Assembly (NCBI GenBank): GCA_044378095.1
Contig: JBILXX010000005.1
Coordinates: forward strand, 55 to 64,054
DNA: 64,000 nt
Reading direction: 5' to 3'
Source of the DNA: Polaromonas sp.
Lineage (GTDB): Bacteria; Pseudomonadota; Gammaproteobacteria; Burkholderiales; Burkholderiaceae_C
A program made the translations under genes and the position numbers. Shown here piece by piece: positions 36,503 through 50,549 of the stretch (its first letter is position 1; each line of letters starts with the position of its first letter). Under the pieces are notes generated by a model. That model was not told the DNA's origin. It made no database searches and worked only from the letters and a program-made list of their open reading frames with translations.

Positions 36503-37330
36503 ATGGCAACAACACATCACGACAATATCGCCTTCATTGGCGGCGGCAACATGGCCAGTGCCATCATTGGCGGCTTGCTCAAACGGGGCGCGCCTGCCAG
36601 CAGCATTCAGGTGGTTGAACCGTTTGAAGAAGCGCGTACCAGGCTGAAAGAAAAGTTTGGCGTCAGTGTGCGCGAAGCACCCAGCCCCCATTTGACCAGC
36701 GCGACGCTGGTGGTGTGGGCCGTCAAGCCGCAAACCTTCAAAGACGCGGCGCTGGACACCCGCTTTCACACCAAAACCGCGCTGCATTTGAGTGTGGCTG
36801 CCGGCATCACATCCAGCAGCATTGCCCACTGGCTGGGCAGCGAGCACATCGTGCGCGCCATGCCCAACACGCCTGCGCTGGTGGGCAAAGGCATGACAGC
36901 CCTATTTGCACGGCCCGCCGTAACTGCCGCAGGCCGCGCCATGGTGGACCGCGTGATTCAAACCACTGGCGACCACCTGTGGCTGGATGATGAAAGCCAG
37001 CTCGATGCCGTCACCGCCCTGTCAGGCTCAGGCCCCGCTTATGTTTTTTACTTTATCGAGGCCATGATTGAAGCGGGTGTGGCGATGGGCTTGACGCGCG
37101 AACAGGCGCACCAGTTGGCGGTAGGTACGTTTGTCGGCGCCAGCGCACTGGCCAAGGCCAGCGATGAGCCGATTGAAATTTTGCGCTCCCGCGTCACGTC
37201 CAAAGGCGGTACAACCCATGCGGCTATTACCTCGATGGAGCAGGACAACGTGAAAACCCTGTTCATGCGCGCCATGAGCGCGGCCAGGCAAAGAGCCAAA
37301 GAAATGGGTCAAGAGTTTGGCTCGAATTGA
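36503..37330 (+). CDS. proC: Pyrroline-5-carboxylate reductase
   Basis: FIGGGNMA, VRAMPNTP, ALSGSGPAY, VTSKGGTT. Confidence 0.97.
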   Translation: MATTHHDNIAFIGGGNMASAIIGGLLKRGAPASSIQVVEPFEEARTRLKEKFGVSVREAPSPHLTSATLVVWAVKPQTFKDAALDTRFHTKTALHLSVAAGITSSSIAHWLGSEHIVRAMPNTPALVGKGMTALFARPAVTAAGRAMVDRVIQTTGDHLWLDDESQLDAVTALSGSGPAYVFYFIEAMIEAGVAMGLTREQAHQLAVGTFVGASALAKASDEPIEILRSRVTSKGGTTHAAITSMEQDNVKTLFMRAMSAARQRAKEMGQEFGSN

Positions 37331-37335
37331 GTTTT

Positions 37336-38217
37336 TTATAACTGCGCAGCGTAAGTGGCGGCAATGCCCATGAACACGGTAAACCCCAGCCAGTGATTTA
37401 GCCTGAAAGCCTTGAAGCAATCGTCTCGCTGGCGCTTTCGGATCAGCCAGATATGCCACAGGGCTTGCGCCAGTGCCAGACCAATTGCTACTAAATAGAT
37501 AGCTTCTTGCGCTCGATTTAATTGACTTGAAAGCACATTCAGCCATATAAAAAGGTATAAAAAGTAACTCACGAGCACCGCCAGCACGTCAAAACGCCCA
37601 AAGGTGATGGCCGAGGTCTTCATGCCGATTTTCAGGTCATCATCGCGGTCCACCATGGCGTATTCGGTGTCGTAGGCAATCACCCAGAACAGATTGCCCA
37701 GCAACAGCACCCAGGCCAGCATAGGCACGCGCGACTGCACGGCGGCAAACGCCATCGGTATGCCAAAGCTGAAAGCCACGCCCAGCACCGCCTGCGGCAT
37801 GACCACAAAGCGTTTGGCAAACGGGTAAATGATGGCAATGCCTAAAGCGGCAAATGACCAGGCAATGGCGGTGATATTGGTCGTCAGCACAAGGCCGAAT
37901 GCGCAGAGCGCCAGCATCGCGCCCACCGCCAGCGCTTCTTTGGCGGGCAGCTTGCCGCTGGTCACAGGGCGCTGGGCGGTGCGCTTGACGTGACGGTCAA
38001 AGTCACGGTCGGCCACATCGTTCAAACAGCACCCTGCGCTGCGCATGAGGAACGTGCCCAAGGTAAAAACCACCAGCAAATGCCAGCTCGGAAAACCGTG
38101 TGACGCCAGCCAAAGCGCCGACAGCGTGGGCCACAGCAGCAGCAGCCAGCCCGCAGGGCGGTCCCAGCGGATGAGTTGCAGGTAGAGGTTCAGTCTGTTT
38201 TTCAAAAACGTGCTCAA
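37336..38217 (-). CDS. ubiA: 4-hydroxybenzoate polyprenyltransferase
   Basis: [43 protein letters not shown]; TTG start overlaps the res stop. Confidence 0.95.
37487..37540 (+). repeat. Dispersed repeat family A, copy 9, in frame inside ubiA (antisense, diverged)
   Basis: GCTACTAAATAGATAGCTTCTTGCGCTCGATTTAATTG; encodes [13 protein letters not shown]. Confidence 0.7.
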
Positions 38218-41200
38218 GTCACTTGCGCTAGCAAACCGTCCAGCGTCTTGGCTTTCACAAACTTGGCGGGGTTCTGGCCAGTTGCCACCGCCTCAAAATG
38301 CCGCACGCCACAGTCAATCTTGTCAGACTCGCCAGTGCGTAAGTCCAGTGTGACCAAGCTGCCTTTGGTCTCCACCACAAAGTACAACTTGTCTTGCCCC
38401 TCATGGTCAACCACTACTGCCCAGTCTGGGTTGTAGCCGCCAAGCGGCGTTGGGATGCTGAACCAGCTTGGCAGCTTCACATACAGCTTGACCGACTCAT
38501 TTTTCTCTAGTGCGTCAGCAAAAGTACGTTCAATCTCTGAGTCATACAGCACGCTTTCAAACACTGATTTCTCAGCCTTCAGCGTATTGAGGTAACCCAT
38601 CAGCTCGGCCGTTTCAAACAGCTCTTGTGCCCAAACATGCGCTTGACTGTCTACATCGCCCAAGCGGGTGTAGCGTATGCCGTCCACGATGGCGTGTTGC
38701 TTGTAACAGTTGATGTACTTCGCCGCCAAGTCAATAAACTGCTGCGGATTGATTTTGAAATCACCCAGCCGCCCGCTGCGCTGCAGCACATCGACCAGGC
38801 TGCGGCGCGTCAGTTGTGTGCGGTCTTGCAACTCGGTCAGCAGGTCAGGCAGGGGAATCGTCTCAGCCAAGGTTTCATGCACAGAGTCGCTGGTACCCAC
38901 TGCATCCACACCACCACGCCCAATTGACAAATCTGCCTTGCGAAAGCGCGCGCGGGTAGGCGTGACTTTGGGTGCTTCTTGCAAGGCTTTGACGCAGGTA
39001 TCCAGCAACTTGGCATTGTCAAACGCCACGCGGTAAGTGGTGCGGTGCTTGATGCGGTCCCACAGCGCTTTGAAGTCAGGGCTTAAATACACCTCGCGGC
39101 GCAGTGCAATGGGTTTTTTGTCGTCGGCGTTTTTAATGTCCAGCTTGCCCGCCAGTTTGCGCAGGCGGTCAATGATCTGAACCTTCCATGCTTCCAACTC
39201 CAATGGGATGGGTACCGTGCCGTCTTTCAGCGCCTGGCGCAATCCGTCTTGCACTTTGCCAGCCGCATTGATCAAGCCCAAAGATTTCAAATGCTGGGCA
39301 ATGGCTTCAGAGCGCTCCGCGCCCAACACATCAGCATCACCATCCGCGCCAGCCACGGCCAACTGTGCAAAGGCATGGCCTTCGACCACACCAAAGCGTA
39401 TGCCGGTCTCGGCCTCCATTTCTTTTTGCAGTTTGTCGGCAAAGTCTTCATAGCTTTCGTTGGCAATCACGGTGAGTGTGTTCACCTCAAAGCCGCGCAG
39501 GCGTTGGCCGGTTTGGTCCACGCACAGGCGCAAGCCACGGCCAATGGTTTGGCGGCGCTCGCGCTCGGTGTTGATCTCGCGCAGGTTGCAAATCTGAAAC
39601 ACATTGGGGTTGTCCCAGCCTTCGCGCAGAGCAGAATGCGAGAAGATGAATTTGAGCGGCGTGTCAAAGCTCAACAAGCGCTCTTTGTCTTTCATGATCA
39701 GGTTGTAAGCTCGTTCTGCGCTGTCACGACCCGTTTGGTTACTTTCACCTGTGTCTGTCCAGCCGCCTTTTTTGTCGATAGAAAAGTAGCCGTCATGTAC
39801 GCCGCTGGCGGGGGCACTTAAATCGACTTCTTTAAACAAGCTGTTGTACCTGCTGGACTTGGCATAGGCCGTGTATTCCTCTTCAAACATCTGCGCAAAC
39901 TTGCCCTGCGCGGCAACACCATTGTCGCTGTACTGGCGGTAGTTGGCCACGGTGTCGATAAAAAACAGGCTCAGCACCTTGATGCCTTTGGGCCGCAAAC
40001 GCAGCTCTTTGTCCAGGTGCTCGCGAATGGTGCGCTTGATCATCATGCGTTTGATGGCGTCGTCGTCTACATCGCCTACCGCCTGACCTACTGTCAGTTG
40101 CTCTTCCCCGCCCGGAAATCGCAAGTCCAGGTACTGCGCACCTGTTTTGGCGCTGAATTCGCCCACCACGTAGTTGGCGTACATGGCATTGTTGGTGACC
40201 TGCTGCAAGTCATCGTCCACCCGCACTTTTTTAGCCATCCGTTTGATGCTGCCCGTTTTAGACTGCACGTCCAGCTCCACCTCGGCCACCGGTTTTTTTG
40301 CCTCAAAGCCGACACCCAGAAGCTTCACATACGGCTTGTTATGACCACCTTGAATATCCAGGCTGGCCACTTCAATTTGTTTGACCAGCTGCCGCTCATA
40401 CGCGTCCACCGCGTCCAGCTTGTAGACCATGTGGTGCTTGGTGGCATGGGTGGCTGAATAGCGCAGGGTACACAGCGGGTTCATTTCGCTAAGCGCTTGT
40501 TTGCCCTTGCCGTCTTTGCCACCGTCCACGCTTTGTGGCTCGTCCACAATCACGATGGGGCGGGCTTGGCGAATCAGCGTGATGGGGCTCTCACCGCCCG
40601 TTTTTTCGCTGTCTTTGTAAACCACCGCATAGTCTGCTCGGGCAATCGACTGAATCGTCATCACCATGATCTGCATGTGCGAACTGGTTGCAAAGTTACG
40701 GACTTGGCCTAGTTTTTTAGAGTCATAAATAAAGTAATCAAACGGCACACCCGCGTACAGCGTTTTAAAGTGCGGCGCCATGATTTGCAGGCTTTTGTAC
40801 ACGCCTTCTTTGATGGCCACCGACGGCACCACAATCACAAACTTGGTAAAGCCAAACTTCTGGTTCAGCTCAAACAGCGTGCGCAGGTAGACATAGGTTT
40901 TGCCGGTGCCGGTTTCCATTTCTACCGTGAAGTCGCCTGACTCCAATGTGGGCGACAGCGCCAAGCCGTTGCGCAGTTGCACCGCGTTCAGGTTTTTAAG
41001 CAAGTCGTCGTCCAGCAGGCTGAGCCGGTTGCCAATACCCAGCTCGCTTTCAGCCAGCCCCAGACCCATTTGCTGCTGCACCACCTGCCCTGCAAGGTCG
41101 ATGCTTTGGCCATAGCCCGGCGCACTGTGACTGACGGTAAATTCAGTCCGGCACAGCTCTTGGCCCATGAAGAGGCCACACACCGCGTCAATGGCGGCGC

Positions 41201-41237
41201 GCTGGTAGTCCAGGTTGTGTTCAAACTGAAGGTTCAT
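38214..41237 (-). CDS. res: Type III restriction enzyme Res subunit (SF2 helicase plus PD-(D/E)xK nuclease)
   Basis: [50 protein letters not shown]...VETKG. Confidence 0.93.
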
Positions 41238-41291
41238 AGCTTGTACTTGTTGTGACTTTGAACGCTTTCCAAAATGGAAGCAGTTGCATGG

Positions 41292-42320
41292 TCATTTGGC
41301 AGGTTTCGGTTTTGACAGCAGCTTTGTGGTCTGTACCAGCGACTCAATCGACGTGCCGTCCGCTGCATTTTCAAGCTGCGCGCGGCGTTGTTCGGCAAAT
41401 TTATCGTATTCGGCATGCGCTTTTGCCAGCGCTGCTTTGTGGCTCACAGCCCCAGCGTTGCCCAACACGTTGCGGTCGTTAAACGCCAAAAACGCATCAA
41501 GCCGCTCGTTCCAGTGCGCTAAAAACACCTGCTTGCGTCGCAGCGCCTGGTCTTCTGCAAAGTCCAGCCACATGGTGACGATGCGGTTCAGCTCGGTCAC
41601 TTCCGCTTCATGCAGGTAGTTTTTGGCTACCGTTACGTCTGCTTTGTTCAGCCACTGCCCCTTCCAGCTTGACAAACCCATATTCGGTTGCGTTGCGTCT
41701 ACCCGGGCGGTGATAAGCTCTGCCGCCGTTTGGCCAGTCACTGCAAAGTGCAGCTTGTTTTGAATCACCCGAAAAAACGCGGTGGTCTCTGGCAAGCTGG
41801 GCTCATAGTCCGCCGCCAGCGTGAAAATTTCACGCACCCGCAGGTACATGCGTCGCTCGCTGGCACGTATGTCACGCACACGGTCAAGCATTTGCGCGAA
41901 GTAATCAGGTGCCGCGTTGTCTGCAACGGGCGGGTTTTTAAGCCGCTCGTCGTCCATGGTGAAGCCTTTGAGCAAGTACTCACCCAGCCGCTCGGTAGCC
42001 CAGCGCCTGAACTGCGTGCCGCGTGCGGACCGCACGCGATAGCCCACCGCCAGCACCATGTCCAGGTTGTAGTGCTCTACATCACGCTCTACATTGCGGC
42101 CGCCCTCAGATTGAACTGTTCGGAATAGCCGAACAGTTGCCTCAGGGCTTAGCTCGCCTTCCTCGTAAATGTGTTTGATGTGCTCACTAACCGTCCCTTT
42201 TGCTTTGCCAAACAGTTCTGCAAGCTGCTTTTGGCTAAGCCACAGGGTTTCGCCATCCAGCGTCACGTCCAGTCGCGTGCGCCCGTCGTCGCTTTGAAAA
42301 ATTAAAAATTCACCCATCAC
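41292..42320 (-). CDS. RhuM-family DNA-binding protein
   Basis: ETLWLSQKQLAELF, HYNLDMVLAVGYRV, FRRWAT, RDIRASE, KNYL. Confidence 0.9.
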   Translation of the reverse strand: MMGEFLIFQSDDGRTRLDVTLDGETLWLSQKQLAELFGKAKGTVSEHIKHIYEEGELSPEATVRLFRTVQSEGGRNVERDVEHYNLDMVLAVGYRVRSARGTQFRRWATERLGEYLLKGFTMDDERLKNPPVADNAAPDYFAQMLDRVRDIRASERRMYLRVREIFTLAADYEPSLPETTAFFRVIQNKLHFAVTGQTAAELITARVDATQPNMGLSSWKGQWLNKADVTVAKNYLHEAEVTELNRIVTMWLDFAEDQALRRKQVFLAHWNERLDAFLAFNDRNVLGNAGAVSHKAALAKAHAEYDKFAEQRRAQLENAADGTSIESLVQTTKLLSKPKPAK

Positions 42321-44458
42321 AAGCTCCGCACGTCCTCCAGCCCGCGCTGGCGCAGGATGGCGGTTAGGTTGGTTTTGGCGACATCTCCGTCAAACAGGCT
42401 GTCGCGCAGCACCACGCGGGTGTGCAGCTCGGCCGGGGTTTGGCCTAAAGTGGCGGCCAGTTGGGTGTGCCAGTCGGCTATGCCCAGGGCCAGCGCCTCG
42501 GCGTTGGCGGCTGTGACGCTGGCTTCAAGCATCGCACCTTTTTCGTCGCCGTCCCGGGCCAAACACACCAGCAGAGCCCCAGCGCCCACGCTGTGTACCG
42601 TGTGCCCGGCAATCACCTGGCGCTGCACGGGCAAGGCCAGGTCCAGCCCTTGTTTGAGCAGCACTTCATACAGCACGTCCGCCTCGGTACGGCCAGCGGC
42701 CAGGTGCTCGGTGTGCGCCATCAGCGTGTCGGCCAGCTCATCGGGGTTGGGGTTCCAGGCGCGGATGTTGGACGTGTCGAGCTTGAAGACCTTGAAGCCC
42801 AAATCGAGTGGCTTTTGGGGCGTTTTAGCCTCATTTTCAAGGCTTAATTGGGCTGTAGCCGAATCATGACGGGCGTAAGCAGCTCCTATTTTTGTAGCGG
42901 CGCGGCGCAGGCGTTCTTTGGTGAGTTCGGCGATGTTGCGGGGTTTGCCGATGGAATCGCAAAAATCAGCCGCTACCTTTTGATCTTTGTTTTCAATGTC
43001 TAACGCTTCTGGGAGTTGAACCAGAATGAAGCGTCGTCCAGCGCGCTCTGTTTCATTTTGCTCAAAAATAGCGTGACCGGATGTACCAGAACCTGCAAAA
43101 AAATCCAACACCAGATCGTCAGGACCACAAATGTAGCTAACGAGTTTTTTCAAATCGTCTAGAGGTTTTGGATTATCAAAAACTCTCTTGCCTTCAAAAA
43201 GTGCGTTAAATTGATTTGCAGAGTTCTGCGCGTAGCTGTAGTGAACGCTGACCATTACTTGATCGCTGTTTTCAAACAAATTCGTTCTTACTCTCGGTAC
43301 GGTTGTTTCATCAACGCCAAACACGATTCGGCCATTTGCCACCTCTTCCCAGAAACGATTTGGATTTGGGTATCGCCATCCACTTACGGGCAGTTTGCAT
43401 GGTCGGTTTGTGGTGGGATGCAGAACCTCGTAAAAAGGGCCACCACCGCCAGGCCAGTTAATATTTCCGTCGTCGCGAAACGGCCCTTTTTCGTCAACTT
43501 TTGTGAATCGTTTTAACGGTGCACGTTCATCTTCGTCTGTTATCAAAGCGTAGTAGTCAGAAAGCCCCTGCCGAATGCTCGGCCAATCGTTGCCGTGAAG
43601 ATTTACAAGCCGGACAAACTCTGCTCTTACTTCTTCAACCCCTTCCTTTTGACCTCTGAAAATTATTTGGTTTTCTTTTAGTAACGCTTCGTTCTTAAAG
43701 TAAACAAGCATGTACTCATGTCCAACAGAAAAATATTTTGCGTCATTTTTTCTGTTTCTATCCCACACAAGACATGCAGCGAAATTTTCCTCCCCAAATA
43801 CCTCATCCACAACACGGCGGATGTTGTGCATTTCCGCATCATCAATGCTAATAAAAATAACCCCATCCTCCCGCAACAAATTCCGAGCCAACTTCAACCT
43901 CGGATACATCATGTTCAGCCAGTCCGTATGAAAGCGCCCGCTGGCCTCGGTGTTGCTGCTGAGCTTGCGGCCTTCGCCGTCCGTCTGGCCGGTCAGCTCC
44001 AGGTAGTTTTTAATGTTGTCGGTGAAGTTGTCGGGGTACACAAAGTCTTTGCCGGTGTTGTACGGCGGGTCGATGTAGATCATCTTGACTTTGCCGGCGT
44101 AGCTTTTTTGCAGCAGCTTTAAGACTTCGAGGTTGTCGCCCTCAATCATCAGGTTTTGGGTGGTGTCCCAGTCCACACTCTCGCCGGGGCAGGGGCGCAA
44201 GGTGCCTGTGCTGGGGGTCAGCGCAATTTGCCGGGCGCGGCGTTTGCCGTGCCAGTTCAAACCATACTTTTCCTCCCGCTCATCGACTTGCCCACCCAGC
44301 AGTTGTTTGAGGACCTCAAAGTCAACGCCGCCTTCTTTGAAGGCCTCGGGGAACAGGGTTTTAAGCTGGGCCAGGTTGCCTTCCACCACGTTGGCGCTTT
44401 GGGTGTGGGCGGCGTCTAGCGGGGCAATCACGCTGGCTGAGCTTGATGATGTGTTCAT
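42317..44458 (-). CDS. mod: Type III R-M Mod subunit (N6-adenine DNA methyltransferase, beta arrangement)
   Basis: YGLNWHGK, IEGDNLEVLKLL, motif IV IYIDPPY, motif I LDFFAGSG, GFKVFKLD. Confidence 0.93.
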   Translation of the reverse strand: MNTSSSSASVIAPLDAAHTQSANVVEGNLAQLKTLFPEAFKEGGVDFEVLKQLLGGQVDEREEKYGLNWHGKRRARQIALTPSTGTLRPCPGESVDWDTTQNLMIEGDNLEVLKLLQKSYAGKVKMIYIDPPYNTGKDFVYPDNFTDNIKNYLELTGQTDGEGRKLSSNTEASGRFHTDWLNMMYPRLKLARNLLREDGVIFISIDDAEMHNIRRVVDEVFGEENFAACLVWDRNRKNDAKYFSVGHEYMLVYFKNEALLKENQIIFRGQKEGVEEVRAEFVRLVNLHGNDWPSIRQGLSDYYALITDEDERAPLKRFTKVDEKGPFRDDGNINWPGGGGPFYEVLHPTTNRPCKLPVSGWRYPNPNRFWEEVANGRIVFGVDETTVPRVRTNLFENSDQVMVSVHYSYAQNSANQFNALFEGKRVFDNPKPLDDLKKLVSYICGPDDLVLDFFAGSGTSGHAIFEQNETERAGRRFILVQLPEALDIENKDQKVAADFCDSIGKPRNIAELTKERLRRAATKIGAAYARHDSATAQLSLENEAKTPQKPLDLGFKVFKLDTSNIRAWNPNPDELADTLMAHTEHLAAGRTEADVLYEVLLKQGLDLALPVQRQVIAGHTVHSVGAGALLVCLARDGDEKGAMLEASVTAANAEALALGIADWHTQLAATLGQTPAELHTRVVLRDSLFDGDVAKTNLTAILRQRGLEDVRSL
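42815..42898 (-). repeat. Dispersed repeat family A, copy 10, in frame inside mod (sense)
   Basis: GCTACAAAAATAGGAGCTGCTTACGCCCGTCATGATTCGGC; encodes ATKIGAAYARHDSATAQLSLENEAKT. Confidence 0.85.
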
Positions 44459-44498
44459 AGTTGACAGGTTGTTTTTTTAATCTGTGCGTTGTGCTGTT

Positions 44499-44531
44499 TT
44501 CAATAGTCCGCCCAGTGGGTGGACTATTGAA
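44499..44531. other. Long hairpin between the toxin gene and mod
   Basis: TTCAATAGTCC-GCCC-AGT-GGGT-GGACTATTGAA, about 15-bp stem; no adjacent U-tract on either strand. Confidence 0.7.
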
Positions 44532-44553
44532 GGAAGGTCAGACAAGGTGCGCT

Positions 44554-45018
44554 TCAGGTGGATTGGTTGAGCAGTTCTTCGATGCTTTGCGGCACGATGC
44601 CTTTGGCGAGCATTCGGCCAAAGGTTTCGTAAACATCGGTTTTTGAACCCGCTTTGCGCAGAGTGTCCTCATCGTTGAACCAGACATAGACAATGAGTTT
44701 GACGGGGCTGGAGGCATAGCGAAAAAACAGGCGGTAGCGGCCGGGTAAGCCTTTTTTGACTCTGCGCCAATGGGCGTTCGTTGAAGCTGCGGTGCCTAGC
44801 GTCTTGCCAAGCCGAAATTCTGGCGCTGCGGGGTTGGCGGGCACGGTTTGGCTCATGGCTTTGAAGATGGAGGCCAAGAGTTTGGTTTTAGGGTGGGTTT
44901 TGTAAGTGCTAGGCTCGCGCTGAGCAAGCTGGGAGACGAAGCCTTCCAGCTCGCCCAAGGCAACTTGAAAGGCGCGGAGCTTGAAAATTTGCCATCCGTT
45001 GACTTGCATGGCGATCAA
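44554..45018 (-). CDS. YhaV-family toxin (RelE-superfamily RNase)
   Basis: VNGW, KTKLLASI, EFRLGKTLG, WRRVKKG..RYRLFFRY, IVYVWFNDEDTLRKAGSKTDVY. Confidence 0.88.
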   Translation of the reverse strand: MIAMQVNGWQIFKLRAFQVALGELEGFVSQLAQREPSTYKTHPKTKLLASIFKAMSQTVPANPAAPEFRLGKTLGTAASTNAHWRRVKKGLPGRYRLFFRYASSPVKLIVYVWFNDEDTLRKAGSKTDVYETFGRMLAKGIVPQSIEELLNQST

Positions 45019-45335
45019 TCAACCTCAACGCCTTCAACCAAAGCGGCAATTCGAGCCCATTGTGCGGGGTCAGCAGGCACGATTTGCTCAGGATGGGCGG
45101 CCATTTGAGCTTCTAAAAAGCTCAAAAAACTCTCCATCACGGGGTCTATCTCTGGCTTGGCGGCTTTGCTTTTGGCAGCGGGCTGCGCGGAGATGAGCAC
45201 CTGGCCATCGGCCACAAAGGTGGCACGTACTTTGCCGCTGAACTCGGGGTGGGCATTAAAAAACCCCGCTGGCAGGCGCATGCCGCGGCTGTTGCCTACC
45301 TGAACGACGGTGCCCTCGTATTGGGTGGTTTGCAT
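45015..45335 (-). CDS. AbrB/PrlF-like antitoxin
   Basis: AbrB-type VVQVGNSRGMRLP; C-terminal DPVMESFLSFLEAQM...LVEGVEVD resembles PrlF; overlaps the toxin start. Confidence 0.82.
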   Translation of the reverse strand: MQTTQYEGTVVQVGNSRGMRLPAGFFNAHPEFSGKVRATFVADGQVLISAQPAAKSKAAKPEIDPVMESFLSFLEAQMAAHPEQIVPADPAQWARIAALVEGVEVD

Positions 45336-45420
45336 GGTGGTTTACCTTTGATGTAGATACAAGTGTGATCACGCATGTTATCCCAGAAACTAGGACTTGC
45401 CCCGCTGTTGATCATCCCGC

Positions 45421-46287
45421 TCAAAGGTGGCCTAGCAAAGCCTGGCGCTCGGCCATGAGTTTTGCAATTTGGACATTGAGAGCGGCGCGTTGGCCAAGCT
45501 GGCTTTCTTTGCGGGCCTGGGTGCGCAGGCTGGCCAGTTGTTGGCCCAGCTGGTCGTAAGCGGCCAAAGAACTGCGGCGCTGGGCGGCGTGTGGTGCGCT
45601 GGGGCTGACGATGAACTGCCCGGTGTGTTCGGCTGCGGCCAGCGCTTCAATGGCGTGCAGCCAGTCGTTGTAGCGGGCATACAGGTCCCGACATTGACGT
45701 AGTGGGGCGCTGGCGCCTTGATTGAAGGCTAAATATTGAGAAAATTGGCCAGCAGCCCCCGCTCTATGTGCGCGAGCAGCTATTGATTTAGTAGTAACCA
45801 CTTGCTCCAGCACCATGGCGCTGCCTGTGCCCAGGCTAAGGCGTTTGTGGGCCAGGCTGAGTTGTTCAGTGCCGCCGTCAGCCCCGTTATGCGCGCTGGG
45901 CTGGCTGACGATGAGGACAACCGGGTAGGGAATGGTGCGGTGAATGAGTTCAATGAGCCGGGTCAGTTGTGCGCTGCCGCGCGAGGCTGACTTGGAAGAG
46001 CTGTGGCGCAGAACCGCGTGCAACACAGCAATCTCCAGATAGTCATGGGTGCCCGTTTGCCACACCGCCAAGCCGCAGGTGGCGGGCTTCAGAGCTGCCA
46101 GCCAGTGCAGCTCGGCCAGCAACTGATTGACGAGCCGCTTGTCTGCCGCTGTGCTGCCGGGCAGATTGGCGATTTGCTCTATGAGCAGTGTTTTGGCGAT
46201 GCGCTGGCCCACGCAGGCACTGGCGGGTAGGGCCAGGGCTTGCACCAGCGCGGGGGCTTGGCTGAATGGGTTGGCCGCCTTGGTCAT
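45421..46287 (-). CDS. DUF4391-family protein
   Basis: WLAALKP, DYLEIAVL, IHRTIPYPVVL, SLAHKR, C-terminal coiled coil KESQLGQRAALNVQI; ATGA overlap with the helicase. Confidence 0.82.
   Translation of the reverse strand: MTKAANPFSQAPALVQALALPASACVGQRIAKTLLIEQIANLPGSTAADKRLVNQLLAELHWLAALKPATCGLAVWQTGTHDYLEIAVLHAVLRHSSSKSASRGSAQLTRLIELIHRTIPYPVVLIVSQPSAHNGADGGTEQLSLAHKRLSLGTGSAMVLEQVVTTKSIAARAHRAGAAGQFSQYLAFNQGASAPLRQCRDLYARYNDWLHAIEALAAAEHTGQFIVSPSAPHAAQRRSSLAAYDQLGQQLASLRTQARKESQLGQRAALNVQIAKLMAERQALLGHL
45730..45795 (-). repeat. Dispersed repeat family A, copy 11, in frame inside the DUF4391 gene (sense)
   Basis: ACTACTAAATCAATAGCTGCTCGCGCACATAGAGCGGGGGCTGCTGGCCAATTTT; encodes TTKSIAARAHRAGAAGQF. 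Confidence 0.8.
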
Positions 46288-49200
46288 GGCGCGGCGGGCA
46301 GCACCGCCAGCCAGGCCACCACTTCAAAGTCACCCATACCTGCAAATTCACCCGCCAGGGCGTGGGTGCCGCCAGGGCTGAACAAACTGGCGGCGGCGCG
46401 CTCTTGGCTTTTGCCTGCAATGGATGCAATGGCGGCGGCCAGCAGTTGCTGGGCGTGTGTCATGTTTTGCCCGCCTTTGGTTGACTTGTCAAACTGAGCG
46501 TGGGCGGCCATGTCTGGTGCAGTGCGGCCAAGCGCCAGGCGTTTGAGCTGGTCAAGGATGCGCTTGGCTTGTGGGTAGGGCAGCAGCACGGTGCCGTCTG
46601 CGCCAACCTTATCGCCGACGTGAACCAGGTAGTGGGGAGCCAGCGGGTAGCTTGGGTCTTGCCCAGTGTCTGGCCGGACAGAACGCAGGCAAAAGATGAT
46701 GCCGGGGGCAATGTCTGCATCTAGCGTGGTGGTGACGGCAAAGCTGCCAAGCGGAAGCTGCGGCAAAACGTCTGGATTCGCTTTGTTGTACTCCGCCAGG
46801 TCAATGCGAAAGTCGGTCAGGGTGAGGTCGGTAATGGCGATGCCGCTCCCCAAGTCCTCCAGATCAATCACGCTGGTTTGCATTTGAATCAGCTGGGCGC
46901 GGCGGTAGGCCAGGTCGTTCATGGGGTCGCCGGACTGTTGTTCAATCAGGTTTTCTTCGCCGGTGGCAGATATATCCAGCAGCACCATGCGGCCGCTGAC
47001 GCGCTGCTCAAGGTTGATATATTCCTCCAGCTCAATATTGGGCCAAAAGTTAACCAGCTGAATGGCGCTGTTGGGCGAGCCCAGGCGGTCAATGCGGCCA
47101 AAGCGCTGAATGATGCGCACCGGGTTCCAATGGATGTCGTAGTTGACTAAAAAGTCGCAGTCTTGCAAGTTTTGGCCTTCGCTGATGCAGTCGGTGGCAA
47201 ACAGCAGGTCAATCGTGCCCTCACTGGCCAGCTCGGCGGGGCGCTCTTTGGACTGGGGTGAAAACGCCGTCAATATATTGCCCAAGCTGCGCTGCATGGG
47301 CAGCGTGGTTTGGTTGTGGCCTGCACCTGTGACCAGGGCGGATTCAACATTTAGCTCTGCTTTGGCCCAGTCTGCCAACTGGGCATACAGGTATTTAGCG
47401 GTGTCTGCAAAGGCCGTAAAAACAATGATTTTGCGATTGCCCGCATTGAACGGGTTGCGGCATTTATCGGCAATCAAAGCTTGCAGCTTGAGCAGCTTGT
47501 CGTCTCGCGCGGCGCTGACGCTGGCGGCTGCAGCGCTTAAGGTGGCTAAGCGGTTGCGGTCTTCCGTCAGGTCTTGCCGCCAGCGTATCAAATCAACATC
47601 GCCTAGCAGTACCTTGACTTTGCGGCCCACCAGCAATGCCTCGTACGCAGGGTCTTCAATATCAATGTCGTCAATTTCCAGCTCATCAACCTCGACTGCT
47701 TTGGCATCGATGCGGGCGAGGATGCTTTCTACATCACGCAACTGGCGCTGCACGGTGAGGGTGAAGGACGACACAGAGCTTTCCATGCGCTTCAAAACAT
47801 TGACGCGCAGCAGGTGAATCAAGCTTTCTTCACGGTCTGCCTGGCGAAAGTAGCCTTGGCCACCGCGCAGCTGGGTGCTGTATTTGGCGTCATACGCTGC
47901 TTGCTTGTGCGGCAGTACGTAGCGTAATGGCGCATACGCGGCCAGGTTGAGGCGGCGGATCTCCTGGTTAATGTCGCGAATGGAACGGAACTCGCCGGTG
48001 CGGTCAACATCGGCTTTGATGTTGATGGGCGGCAAGCGATCTGGGAAGCGGCCTGTCTCTGCTGTACCGTAGTATTTTTCAATGTGGCGGCGTGACCGGG
48101 CAATCGTCAGGTGGTCTAGCAGGCTGAAGTAGTCAAAGCCCAGCATGTCAATGAGCAGCGCGGGGGTCTTCTCCTCTGCGGGAAGCGCTAGCCAGCGGTT
48201 AAAGGCTTTTTGCGCTCGGCGCGTGGTGCTGTCTATGCTGGCGATACCGTGTGGCGACAAAGCGGTGTCGTCACCCTCCGTCACGAAGGCAATTTGGTTT
48301 TTAAGGTCGTTCAAGCGGTTATTGACAGGTGTCGCCGACAGCATCAGCACGCGGGTTTTAACGCCTTCGCGGATGATTTTGCGCATCAGGCGGTCGTAGC
48401 GCGTTTCGCGGCCTTTGTTACTGGCTTTGTTGCGAAAGTTATGGGACTCGTCAATCACGACCAAATCGTAGTTGCCCCAGTTGACGTGCTGCAAATCAAT
48501 ATCACCCGACTGACCCGCGTCGCGCGACAAGTCGGTGTGGTTGAGCACGTCAAAGTTAAAGCGGTCTGCCTCTAACGCATTGCGTTTGTCGTTGGCTTTG
48601 TACAGCGCCCAGTTGTCTCGCAGGCGCTTGGGCACCAGCACCAGCACGCGGTCGTTACGCAGCTCGTGGTACTTGATGATGGCGAGGGCTTCAAAAGTTT
48701 TGCCCAGGCCTACGCTGTCGGCCAAAATACAGCCGCCAAAACGGTTGAGTTTGTCGATGGCAGCCACCACGCCGTCGCGCTGGAATTTATAAAGCTTTTT
48801 CCAAACTGCTGTGTTGCGAATGCCGGTGGAGGCTTTGACGATGGCGTCTTCGTCCAGCGCATCGTTTTTAGAAGCGAAAAGATGGTGAAGAATCAGGCTG
48901 TAGATGCTGGTTGGGTCGCGCTGCACATACAGCGCCTTAACGCTGGCTATAAGCTGGGCTTTGGCGTCGGGCTGGTCCTGCAAGGCAGCCCATTGTTGGT
49001 TAAACCACTGGCTTAAATTTGTTGCCTCTGCGCCCGTGTCTGACTGTTGAATCAAGCTGAGCGGATTGCCGGGTGCCATGCCCAGACCGTCGGTGGTGAA
49101 AGCAAATGCGCCCAAAACGGCCTGCTGCGCTTTGCCGTCACCGTCGCGTAGCACCAAAGTGCCCTGGGGAATGCTGCCTTTAGCCTGGCGTACTTCGGCG

Positions 49201-49487
49201 TTGGCGTTTAGCCAGTCAGCAAACTGCCGGGCAAACCAGTGACTTTGCAGTTGGTTGCGCCAGGCGATGTCGGCATCACTTCCCAACAGTTGCAGTGATT
49301 CAGTGCCCGCCTGAAGGGGCGGCGCAATCAGCCGCACTTGGGATAGCTGCGATGCAAGTGCCGCCAGTTCAGCAAACGCAAACAAGCTGTAATACGGCGA
49401 CGCAATATCAAGCTGTGATTGGCTTTGCAACCACGGGCGAATGGAATCTATGACGCGGTCGTTGCCCGTGTTGTTGATGAATTTCAT
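46284..49487 (-). CDS. SNF2-family helicase with a degenerate N-terminal PLD-like domain
   Basis: ADSVGLGKT, IDESHNF, LMLSATP, IIVFTAFADT, TDCISEGQNLQD, QRFGRIDR. Confidence 0.88.
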   Translation of the reverse strand: MKFINNTGNDRVIDSIRPWLQSQSQLDIASPYYSLFAFAELAALASQLSQVRLIAPPLQAGTESLQLLGSDADIAWRNQLQSHWFARQFADWLNANAEVRQAKGSIPQGTLVLRDGDGKAQQAVLGAFAFTTDGLGMAPGNPLSLIQQSDTGAEATNLSQWFNQQWAALQDQPDAKAQLIASVKALYVQRDPTSIYSLILHHLFASKNDALDEDAIVKASTGIRNTAVWKKLYKFQRDGVVAAIDKLNRFGGCILADSVGLGKTFEALAIIKYHELRNDRVLVLVPKRLRDNWALYKANDKRNALEADRFNFDVLNHTDLSRDAGQSGDIDLQHVNWGNYDLVVIDESHNFRNKASNKGRETRYDRLMRKIIREGVKTRVLMLSATPVNNRLNDLKNQIAFVTEGDDTALSPHGIASIDSTTRRAQKAFNRWLALPAEEKTPALLIDMLGFDYFSLLDHLTIARSRRHIEKYYGTAETGRFPDRLPPINIKADVDRTGEFRSIRDINQEIRRLNLAAYAPLRYVLPHKQAAYDAKYSTQLRGGQGYFRQADREESLIHLLRVNVLKRMESSVSSFTLTVQRQLRDVESILARIDAKAVEVDELEIDDIDIEDPAYEALLVGRKVKVLLGDVDLIRWRQDLTEDRNRLATLSAAAASVSAARDDKLLKLQALIADKCRNPFNAGNRKIIVFTAFADTAKYLYAQLADWAKAELNVESALVTGAGHNQTTLPMQRSLGNILTAFSPQSKERPAELASEGTIDLLFATDCISEGQNLQDCDFLVNYDIHWNPVRIIQRFGRIDRLGSPNSAIQLVNFWPNIELEEYINLEQRVSGRMVLLDISATGEENLIEQQSGDPMNDLAYRRAQLIQMQTSVIDLEDLGSGIAITDLTLTDFRIDLAEYNKANPDVLPQLPLGSFAVTTTLDADIAPGIIFCLRSVRPDTGQDPSYPLAPHYLVHVGDKVGADGTVLLPYPQAKRILDQLKRLALGRTAPDMAAHAQFDKSTKGGQNMTHAQQLLAAAIASIAGKSQERAAASLFSPGGTHALAGEFAGMGDFEVVAWLAVLPAAP

Positions 49488-49571: not shown

Positions 49572-50549
49572 TCAAGACAAGCGCGTCACACCCGGCAGCT
49601 CACAGGCATAAATCGCGTTGCGCAGTGCGGCAATCGCCTCGTAGCGGGTAAAACTGCGCCGCCAGACCAGTACCACGCGTCTTGAGGGGATGTGGCCTTC
49701 AAACGGCAGGTATTTGATGAACGAGGGTTGCTTGGTCGGGACTTTGCTTTTTTTGCCTTTGGCTGTAACAGCATCGTCAAGCAGCGCTTCTTTGGGCACA
49801 CCCAGGCGCGGCACCAGGGTGATGCCCATGCCGGCAGCCACCATGTGTTTGATGGTCTCCAGTGACGAGCCCTCAAAGCTTTTTTGAATGCCGCCCGAGG
49901 TGCTGGAAAAGCGCGCAAATTCAGGGCAGACCTCCAGCACGTGATCACGAAAGCAATGGCCATTGCCCAGCAGCAGCATGGTTTCTTTTTTGATTTCTTC
50001 CGCCGTGATGCTGCTGCGCGTTGCCAGGTGGTGCGAGCTGGGTACCGCCGCCATGAAGGGCTCGTCATACAGCGGGGCAATGGCCAGATTCGTGTCGGGG
50101 AAAGGCTCCGCCAAAATGGCGCAGTCAATCTCGCCGTTGCGCAACTCTTCCAGCAGCTTGACGGTGAAGTTTTCCTGCAGCATCAGCGGCATTTGTGGCA
50201 GCCGCACAATCATTTGCCGCACCAGGTCGGGCAGCAAATAGGGGCCAATGGTGTAGATCACACCCAGGCGCAGGCTGCCGGCCAGCGGGTCTTTGCCGCG
50301 CTTGGCAATGTCTTTAATCTGGTCGGCTTGCTCCAGCACGCTTTGCGCCTGACGAATGATTTCCTCACCCAGCGGCGTGACGGTGATCTCATTGGCGTTG
50401 CGCTCAAACAGTTTGACCTGCAACTCTTCTTCCAGCTTTTTGATCGCCACGCTTAGCGTGGGCTGCGACACATGGCAGGCGTCTGCGCCCTTGCCAAAAT
50501 GCTTTTCACGCGCCACGGCGACGATGTATTTGAGTTCAGTAAGCGTCAT
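49572..50549 (-). CDS. oxyR: OxyR-type LysR regulator
   Basis: MTLTELKYIVAV, SQPTLS, redox Cys pair GHCFRDHVLEVC, SSLETI. Confidence 0.88.
   Translation of the reverse strand: MTLTELKYIVAVAREKHFGKGADACHVSQPTLSVAIKKLEEELQVKLFERNANEITVTPLGEEIIRQAQSVLEQADQIKDIAKRGKDPLAGSLRLGVIYTIGPYLLPDLVRQMIVRLPQMPLMLQENFTVKLLEELRNGEIDCAILAEPFPDTNLAIAPLYDEPFMAAVPSSHHLATRSSITAEEIKKETMLLLGNGHCFRDHVLEVCPEFARFSSTSGGIQKSFEGSSLETIKHMVAAGMGITLVPRLGVPKEALLDDAVTAKGKKSKVPTKQPSFIKYLPFEGHIPSRRVVLVWRRSFTRYEAIAALRNAIYACELPGVTRLS

Follow-up and report, generated by a model that had tools for sequence, protein, structure and literature searches.

Introduction

Type III restriction-modification (R-M) enzymes, such as EcoP15I and EcoP1I (subunit composition Mod2Res), show less variation than any other classical restriction class, and textbooks present them as two-gene systems. 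ATPases of the SNF2 family recur in DISARM, BREX, Zorya and Dpd, where their roles are poorly understood. Here we analyze a locus in which both kinds of gene stand in a single run, found in Polaromonas sp. (GenBank assembly GCA_044378095.1) on a stretch of 64,000 nucleotides of contig JBILXX010000005.1 (positions 55 to 64,054; hereafter the window). Seven co-oriented minus-strand open reading frames (ORFs) extend across window positions 38214-49487, among them genes for an SNF2-family ATPase and a DUF4391 protein, followed by Type III mod and res genes. The locus is an intact copy of a widespread operon for which we found no published description, and comparison with its relatives predicts a Type III R-M variant with a second DNA motor, as well as functions for the two extra proteins.

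Several described systems share parts with this locus. As in EcoP15I and EcoP1I, Mod is a beta-class N6-adenine (m6A) methyltransferase with the order DPPY, recognition region, FxGxG, Res combines a superfamily 2 (SF2) ATPase with a PD-(D/E)xK nuclease at its C-terminus, the mod gene precedes res, and the PADLOC models MTase_III and REase_III match over their full length. The locus differs from these enzymes in having SNF2 and DUF4391 genes before mod and two cargo slots that interrupt the operon. Its Res reaches 360 bits against PRK15483 ('type III restriction-modification system endonuclease'), below the cut-off of 564, and we therefore place it in a separate Res subfamily.

In Type ISP enzymes (LlaGI, LlaBIII) the domains follow one another as nuclease, SF2 motor, coupler, methylase and recognition domain (PMC7049714). 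The gene order in our family, an SNF2 gene with an N-terminal phospholipase D-like (PLD) domain, then DUF4391, then a methylase, parallels this arrangement, most clearly in a sister branch with an active PLD that is described below. The window system differs from Type ISP in being split over genes, in having a PLD rather than an Mrr nuclease, in the lack of homology of SNF2 and DUF4391 to the ISP parts, and in combining a dead PLD with a separate Res. The CglI/NgoAVII-type NTP-dependent restriction enzymes, built from a separate PLD nuclease R-subunit and a helicase-like H-subunit (PMC5861437), give a precedent for a motor on its own subunit, and the N-terminus of the window SNF2 matches the PLD fold of NgoAVII R; their motor, however, is DEAD-Z1, their PLD is active, and they have no Type III Mod or Res.

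Class 1 DISARM likewise sets an SNF2 ATPase beside an adenine methylase, and the window SNF2 gave partial matches to DrmD models. These scored far below the cut-offs (147.6 bits against 610 for NF038317, 103.9 against 950 for NF038318), so that SNF2 is not DrmD. A search for the MZB/DUF1998 domain of DrmB (PF09369) gave matches in control genomes and none in the 100%-complete genome of the locus; a scan of the genes of the cluster and of its two flanking genes showed no DrmA, DrmB or DrmC; and Mod differs from the DISARM methylase in being a Type III beta-class enzyme. The initial annotation, made from the letters of the window and its ORFs, was thus right to set DISARM aside.

Hma, which consists of the SNF2-NOV_C nuclease HmaA, a DUF1156 methylase and a DUF499 ATPase (PMC11232893), was rejected on similar grounds: the HmaA match was partial (7.4e-24), and Pfam searches of the locus genes returned no NOV_C, DUF1156 or DUF499. 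The BREX-related Type-2 BR system combines an HKD-SNF2 helicase with DUF3780, a DUF1156 methylase and a DUF499 ATPase (PMC12839542), and so shares with the locus an SNF2 protein with an N-terminal HKD/PLD domain, a small protein of unmatched fold and a methylase. Its helicases are nevertheless distant (E 1e-13 to 1e-17, core motifs only) and have an intact HKD motif, which is dead in the window SNF2; DUF499 and DUF1156 are absent from the locus, DUF3780 was not found in the genome, and a homology between DUF3780 and DUF4391 was rejected at an hhalign probability of 1.8%.

The best PADLOC label for the window SNF2, 'C3a139 HKD+Snf2', goes back to a gene list of 2018, drawn from the neighbourhood of type III CRISPR loci, and not to a defined system. 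Other PADLOC matches of this protein were to the DrmD, ZorD, BrxH and DpdE models, and DUF4391 has no PADLOC model.

A conserved four-gene core with two cargo slots

To define the unit to which these genes belong, we searched PF14335, the Pfam profile of DUF4391, in 401 sampled Pseudomonadota genomes, where it was present in 22 (~5%), and scored the ORFs lying within 10 kb on each side of 20 DUF4391 genes with the window proteins. Wherever the upstream DNA could be read (16/16 loci), an SNF2 gene stood immediately upstream of DUF4391; downstream followed Mod in 17 of 18 loci and Res in all 14, always in the same orientation. All four genes were found in constant order and orientation in the 14 fully readable loci, which belong to different families, and three loci (L025, L041, L043) contain these four genes only. 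The linkage of DUF4391 to SNF2 and Mod is far beyond chance. The initial annotation had proposed an expanded R-M module of seven genes and a survey of DUF4391 neighbourhoods. The tight and specific linkage to mod and res stood, and the unit itself proved smaller, the conserved core being SNF2, DUF4391, Mod and Res and not one seven-gene system.

The remaining genes occupy two fixed places, slot A between DUF4391 and Mod and slot B between Mod and Res. In the window, slot A holds a PrlF/YhaV toxin-antitoxin pair and slot B a RhuM-family gene. Other genomes hold other genes in these slots (among them a zeta-toxin-like kinase accompanied by a small partner, Fic/DOC, PDDEXK_3, GmrSD, AlbA_2-HATPase_c_4, TIR, Bro-N, RhuM), and we therefore regard PrlF/YhaV and RhuM as exchangeable cargo outside the core. 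RhuM recurs in slot B of several related loci, with or without SNF2, and in one surveyed locus an insertion sequence (IS) lies inside mod.

The same four-gene order was also found in metagenome contigs labelled Nitrospira, in the methanogen plasmid pMETHO01 and in a prophage-like element of Erysipelothrix, and relatives of the cassette occur in Melainabacteria. In these other lineages the annotation of the genes goes no further than 'helicase-related protein', 'DUF4391 domain-containing protein', methyltransferase and DEAD/DEAH helicase. A profile search placed 3615 clusters at 50% identity in the DUF4391 family.

Two side observations concern these relatives. The Erysipelothrix copy (L085, MF172979.1 75033-83913), deposited as phage phi1605, adjoins the macrolide-resistance genes mef(A)/msr(D) and a site-specific recombinase, and the record wrongly names its DUF4391 gene a methyl-accepting chemotaxis protein. 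Decayed copies were seen in L045, L047, L049, L069, L094, L103 and G047:C31, in the form of truncated mod genes, IS insertions, split SNF2 genes and DUF4391 fused to cargo fragments; their number points to frequent erosion of the cassette.

One-way dependence of SNF2-DUF4391 on Mod-Res

By their motifs, the window's Mod and Res form a complete Type III enzyme: Mod carries DPPY (aa 130) and FAGSG (aa 454) with the target-recognition region between them, and Res carries GTGKT (aa 110) and DEPQ (aa 232), the motifs of an SF2 ATPase, together with a PD...ExK nuclease motif in its C-terminal part (PDW...ETK, aa 937-959). The motif order of Mod, together with the ATPase and PD-(D/E)xK nuclease of Res, is that of Type III R-M.

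Searching Res in the same 401 genomes, we found homologues with 49-64% identity in ~15 genomes that lack DUF4391. Five loci (L046, with RhuM in slot B, L048, L050, L051 and L053) hold intact Mod-Res genes without SNF2-DUF4391, their Res being 53-64% identical, and three further such loci are decayed. In the Res tree, the loci lacking the pair are scattered with strong support among those bearing SNF2, a distribution that requires at least six changes. Conversely, in the loci examined a full-length SNF2 of this family never occurred without an adjoining DUF4391 relative, and truncated copies were IS-disrupted remnants. Because close Mod-Res pairs exist without it and are spread over the Res tree, SNF2-DUF4391 is an add-on that depends on Mod-Res, and not the reverse; the related lone Mod-Res pairs are consistent with the two-gene sufficiency of Type III R-M, a class that methylates one strand of an asymmetric site and requires a pair of inversely oriented sites for cleavage.

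Res retains GTGKT, DEPQ and PD..ExK whether or not SNF2 is present, and the idea that SNF2 compensates for a defective Res was rejected, since these motifs are intact everywhere. Across loci, the pairwise identities of SNF2, DUF4391 and Res are strongly correlated (Spearman rho 0.84-0.90; 0.90 for SNF2-Res and 0.89 for DUF4391-Res). Mod can depart from this pattern: between L038 and L039, SNF2 is 99%, DUF4391 97% and Res 98% identical, but Mod only 59%. This single pair, with a diverged Mod but conserved DUF4391 and SNF2, makes DUF4391 unlikely as a sequence reader, and suggests that neither SNF2 nor DUF4391 takes part in reading the recognition sequence.

An SNF2 motor with a degenerate PLD domain

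The translocase motifs of the window SNF2 are intact (GLGKT, aa 260; DESH, aa 346), its best sequence relative in the PDB is RapA, and it has, beyond Helicase_C, a C-terminal region without an assigned function. Its N-terminal 170 residues adopt a PLD fold in the AlphaFold2 model (pLDDT 80, a predicted score for the local distance difference test), for which Foldseek returned SauUSI (2.7e-5), followed by NucT, NgoAVII R, Zucchini and BfiI, with probabilities of 0.99-1.00. The PLD-like N-terminus read in the initial annotation is therefore supported by predicted structure, and its catalytic motif, HxK(x)4D...GSxN, is lost, H and K being replaced by Q108 and T110, and GSxN by GAFAF. The same HxK/GSxN residues are missing in all 16 Res-linked SNF2 homologues that were aligned (16/16). 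From its motifs, then, the PLD nuclease domain of the window SNF2 is catalytically dead.

In L039 (10300-16752) the SNF2 ORF reads 2150 aa, and in the near-identical L038 the upstream gene is 1255 aa, which suggests that the long ORF is an in-frame fusion of SNF2 with a large upstream gene.

DUF4391, its fusions and a sister branch

The DUF4391 protein is predicted with confidence (AlphaFold2, pLDDT 91.3; predicted template modelling score, pTM, 0.88) as an alpha/beta N-terminal domain followed by three long C-terminal helices. Foldseek against the PDB gave no fold match (best E 0.047, TM-score <0.21), and a feature search of a protein atlas gave weak, unrelated matches only. A PD-(D/E)xK reading was set aside, since it disagrees with the order in which the secondary-structure elements follow one another, and the motif is missing. 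In the literature searched we found no function for DUF4391, in agreement with the initial annotation, and no description of an SNF2-DUF4391-Mod-Res cassette; the name turned up in only three papers, of which one lists the domain in a table without functional discussion and another apparently uses it by a slip for DUF7941.

A region-restricted search for long DUF4391-containing proteins uncovered seven diverged clusters (51-66% identity) in which DUF4391 is the C-terminal domain after an RNase_H_2/RecB-like nuclease and a superfamily 1 (SF1) helicase. The fusion is conserved at 1420 aa (L059:10001-14260, L092:10001-14260, L093:10001-14275), its clusters include a Melainabacteria metagenome-assembled genome, and it always adjoins a Type III Mod-Res. 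In L059 and L092 the fusion is accompanied by a divergently transcribed SNF2 gene, whose product shares 65% identity with that of the window; in L093 the fusion follows a complete canonical SNF2-DUF4391-Mod-Mod-Res module.

Fusions of DUF4391 to methylases, to which a structure search of the protein atlas had first pointed and which sequence then confirmed, belong to a sister branch of the family. Its loci (L095:4954-12237, L098:5714-12857, L101:5702-13076) comprise three genes, for a PLD-SNF2, a divergent DUF4391-like protein and a gamma-class methylase of the Eco57I/TaqI_C type, with no Res; the branch also includes the decayed copy in L103 and a copy without SNF2 in L102. It accounts for the one full-length SNF2 without a Pfam-level DUF4391, that of Mesorhizobium L095, where a DUF4391-like gene comes next with a 4-bp overlap. 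The small protein of this branch is a true remote homologue of DUF4391 (hhalign 94%, E 9e-8) and is frequently joined in frame to the N-terminal end of the Eco57I-type methylase. Its SNF2 partner keeps an intact PLD motif (LLHGK...GSSNFT). PADLOC labels only the methylase of this system, as Type IIG, and the three genes together look like a split Type ISP-like restriction enzyme. Invariant D, D and H..H residues (consensus ...RDVLEKVTLIKDI....PHRAH.EIL...) further set the sister DUF4391-like family apart from canonical DUF4391, which lacks them; these residues may form an active or binding site that the canonical family has lost.

Two patterns follow from these comparisons. The PLD is alive where Res is absent and dead where Res brings its PD-ExK nuclease. 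DUF4391 is found attached to either a motor or a methylase, as would be expected of an adaptor between them; because of these fusions to methylases or to an SF1 helicase-nuclease, we read DUF4391 as probably a coupler between the SNF2 motor and the methylase.

Locus layout and island setting

Coordinates of the window features are collected in Table 1. The gene identities, assigned with Pfam, PADLOC and NCBIfam profiles, agree with those of the initial annotation, as does the ORF listing with its seven co-oriented genes and stop/start overlaps. These overlaps measure 4 bp at SNF2/DUF4391 (46284-46287), PrlF/YhaV (45015-45018) and Mod/RhuM (42317-42320), and a further one, Res/ubiA (38214-38217), was added; the remaining intergenic gaps in the seven-gene run are 54-95 bp.

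Table 1. Features of the SNF2-DUF4391-Mod-Res locus and its flanks, in window coordinates
Feature	Coordinates	Strand	Evidence or remark
SNF2-family ATPase, 1067 aa	46284..49487	-	SNF2-rel_dom and Helicase_C
PLD-fold domain of SNF2	~aa 1-170, nt 48978-49487	-	predicted structure and Foldseek; HxK/GSxN absent
DUF4391 protein, 288 aa	45421..46287	-	PF14335, 2.9e-45
PrlF-family antitoxin, 106 aa, cargo slot A	45015..45335	-	PF15937, 1.4e-09; NF007429
YhaV-family toxin, 154 aa, cargo slot A	44554..45018	-	PF11663, 2.5e-40
Palindrome, 16+16 nt, near-perfect (94% complementary)	44499..44531	none	in the 95-bp yhaV-mod gap
Type III Mod, beta-class N6-adenine methyltransferase, 713 aa	42317..44458	-	N6_N4_Mtase; MTase_III, 2.9e-210
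RhuM-family protein, 342 aa, cargo slot B	41292..42320	-	GTG start, 4-bp overlap with the mod stop
Type III Res, 1007 aa	38214..41237	-	ResIII and RE_endonuc; REase_III, 1253 bits
UbiA prenyltransferase, chromosomal flank	37336..38217	-	Pfam; called start overlaps res stop
LysR-family (OxyR-like) regulator, chromosomal flank	49572..50549	-	84 bp upstream of the SNF2 gene

Both slot A proteins score above their profile cut-offs (38.5 bits against 32 for PF15937 on PrlF, 138 against 35 for PF11663 on YhaV), and as neighbouring PrlF-family and YhaV-family genes with a 4-bp overlap they have the arrangement of a type II toxin-antitoxin system. RhuM matches over its full length both Virulence_RhuM (PF13310, 3.8e-110) and the PADLOC candidate PDC-S05 (PDLC04852, 1.2e-154). 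No T-run follows the palindrome between yhaV and mod, which could be a putative operator or RNA hairpin. A promoter and terminator scan of the locus gave fewer matches than shuffled sequence and none that was convincing, and thus does not resolve the operon structure. Phase-variable repeats were looked for in mod, and none were found.

The locus is an 11.3-kb strain-specific insertion between the LysR gene and ubiA, which in nine relatives of the same genus are separated by 70-800 bp devoid of R-M genes. No convincing flanking direct repeats or att sites were found around the island. It is present, essentially identical and with flat depth, in lake-water metagenomes from 2016-2024. In three of four lake metagenome runs, the ubiA and LysR flanks (36800-38200 and 49600-50500) are 1.5- to 10-fold deeper than the island, which suggests co-occurring strains without it, with the caveat that contig depth includes other organisms.

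A second Type III R-M system lies on another contig of the same genome (C99, L058:1995-8940). Its Res is 31% identical to that of the window and uses DEPH; the system has no SNF2-DUF4391, carries an AAA_15/AAA_21 ATPase gene between mod and res, and is preceded upstream by a PIN gene and two small ORFs, adjoining mfd.

Discussion

The explanation that we consider probable, if not by much, is that Mod and Res make up a Type III enzyme sufficient in itself, onto which SNF2-DUF4391 docks, through DUF4391, as an add-on motor sub-complex bound to the methylase/specificity subunit. Mod would mark one strand of an asymmetric site. SNF2 would act as an active double-stranded DNA translocase, whose PLD has decayed to a non-catalytic domain that probably serves in dimerisation or in holding DNA. 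DUF4391, at the place in the gene order that the coupler takes in Type ISP, would tether this motor to the methylase/specificity subunit, and ATP-driven translocation would thereby supplement the passive sliding on which the enzyme otherwise relies, with Res doing the cutting. The gain could be a wider range of foreign DNAs cut, the clearance of roadblocks or inhibitors, or the recycling of stalled complexes. The PrlF/YhaV and RhuM cargo may act as back-up or abortive-infection modules, much as PrrC does, which is embedded in a Type I locus (PMC12707154).

Other explanations of the same gene arrangement have to be weighed. That unrelated genes were thrown together by chance in a defence island can hardly be credited, since the same four-gene order recurs in the 14 fully readable loci of different families, in other phyla and in an archaeon, even if the region is a horizontally acquired island. 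SNF2-DUF4391 might instead be an autonomous second defence, for example a sensor or abortive layer, that travels with the Type III genes and works independently of Mod-Res. Defence genes do cluster, this locus takes in unrelated cargo, DUF4391 evolves fastest of the core proteins, as sensors often do, and SNF2 ATPases occur in several independent defence systems, whose models (DrmD, ZorD, BrxH, DpdE) the window SNF2 matches. We nevertheless judge an autonomous system rather unlikely: none of the loci examined has the intact pair apart from a methylase, the PLD, its one candidate for an effector domain, is dead, bacteria and archaea alike keep the pair directly upstream of mod and in the same orientation, and both of its proteins co-diverge with Res.

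Two further proposals keep a link to the R-M enzyme and assign the pair a different task. As a guard, SNF2-DUF4391 would strip DNA-mimic or anti-restriction proteins off Mod-Res, or sense them and trigger the cargo toxins. Such a role would suit SNF2 enzymes, which remodel protein-DNA complexes (RapA, the nearest solved sequence relative, recycles RNA polymerase), as well as the fast evolution of DUF4391 and the presence of toxin or abortive cargo in the same operon, as with PrrC in a Type I locus (PMC12707154). The cargo, however, varies by locus and is absent from L025, L041 and L043, which speaks against any need of the core for it; we could identify no feature that would bind an inhibitor; and the DUF4391-methylase fusion points to a constitutive structural link. 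A guard thus seems about as improbable to us as an autonomous defence.

Type III Mod and the Eco57I/MmeI-like enzymes are single-strand modifiers. Both types of methylase that partner DUF4391 would on this background modify one strand, and the sister branch fuses DUF4391 to the methylase and not to a nuclease, as would be expected if the pair served the host, by helping Mod to reach or methylate newly replicated DNA or by evicting sliding Res from the chromosome and so limiting self-cutting by a system with one-strand marking. Intact Mod-Res of the same clade persist without the pair, which is therefore not needed for viability, and the intact nuclease motif of the sister SNF2 suits a restriction subunit better than a protective factor; we hold a host-side role to be less plausible still.

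Some observations also weigh against a docked motor, the explanation that we prefer. The fast evolution of DUF4391 would fit a phage-sensing role as well; the protein is homologous neither to the Type ISP coupler nor to any solved fold, its reading as a coupler draws on position and fusions only, and its contacts with SNF2 and Mod are putative. Comparing Mod and Res of loci with and without SNF2-DUF4391, we found no obvious extra docking domain or length difference. Translational coupling of SNF2 to DUF4391 is not obligatory, given the divergently transcribed variant. One DUF4391 gene, at the contig edge in L032, is the sole exception to the survey, with no Mod downstream, and the genomes sampled come mostly from one phylum and include related genomes that are not independent.

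The docked-motor explanation can also be put in a bolder form, to which we give a smaller but still appreciable chance. DUF4391 would then be a new coupler domain and would define a superfamily of restriction systems that are split, ATP-dependent and Type ISP-like, with SNF2 docked on the methylase/specificity subunit. In systems with an Eco57I-type methylase the PLD would cut; in those with Mod-Res the PLD is dead, and passive Type III sliding would become active translocation. If this were true, the need for two head-to-head sites would be relaxed, and phages that evade Type III enzymes through the orientation of their sites would be defeated.

The initial annotation had left open whether SNF2-DUF4391 is an R-M accessory or a separate defence layer, and the evidence favours an accessory that depends on R-M. 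The outcome is a large family in which a Type III pair is joined by a second motor, of the chromatin-remodeller type, and by a protein of confident but unmatched predicted fold. The three-part pattern of a PLD that is alive or dead according to Res, of DUF4391 fusions and of one-way dependence provides a concrete hypothesis for both proteins. The two defined insertion slots in an R-M operon could reveal further defence or toxin genes, and a tractable four-gene case could inform the roles that SNF2 ATPases play in DISARM, BREX, Zorya and Dpd.

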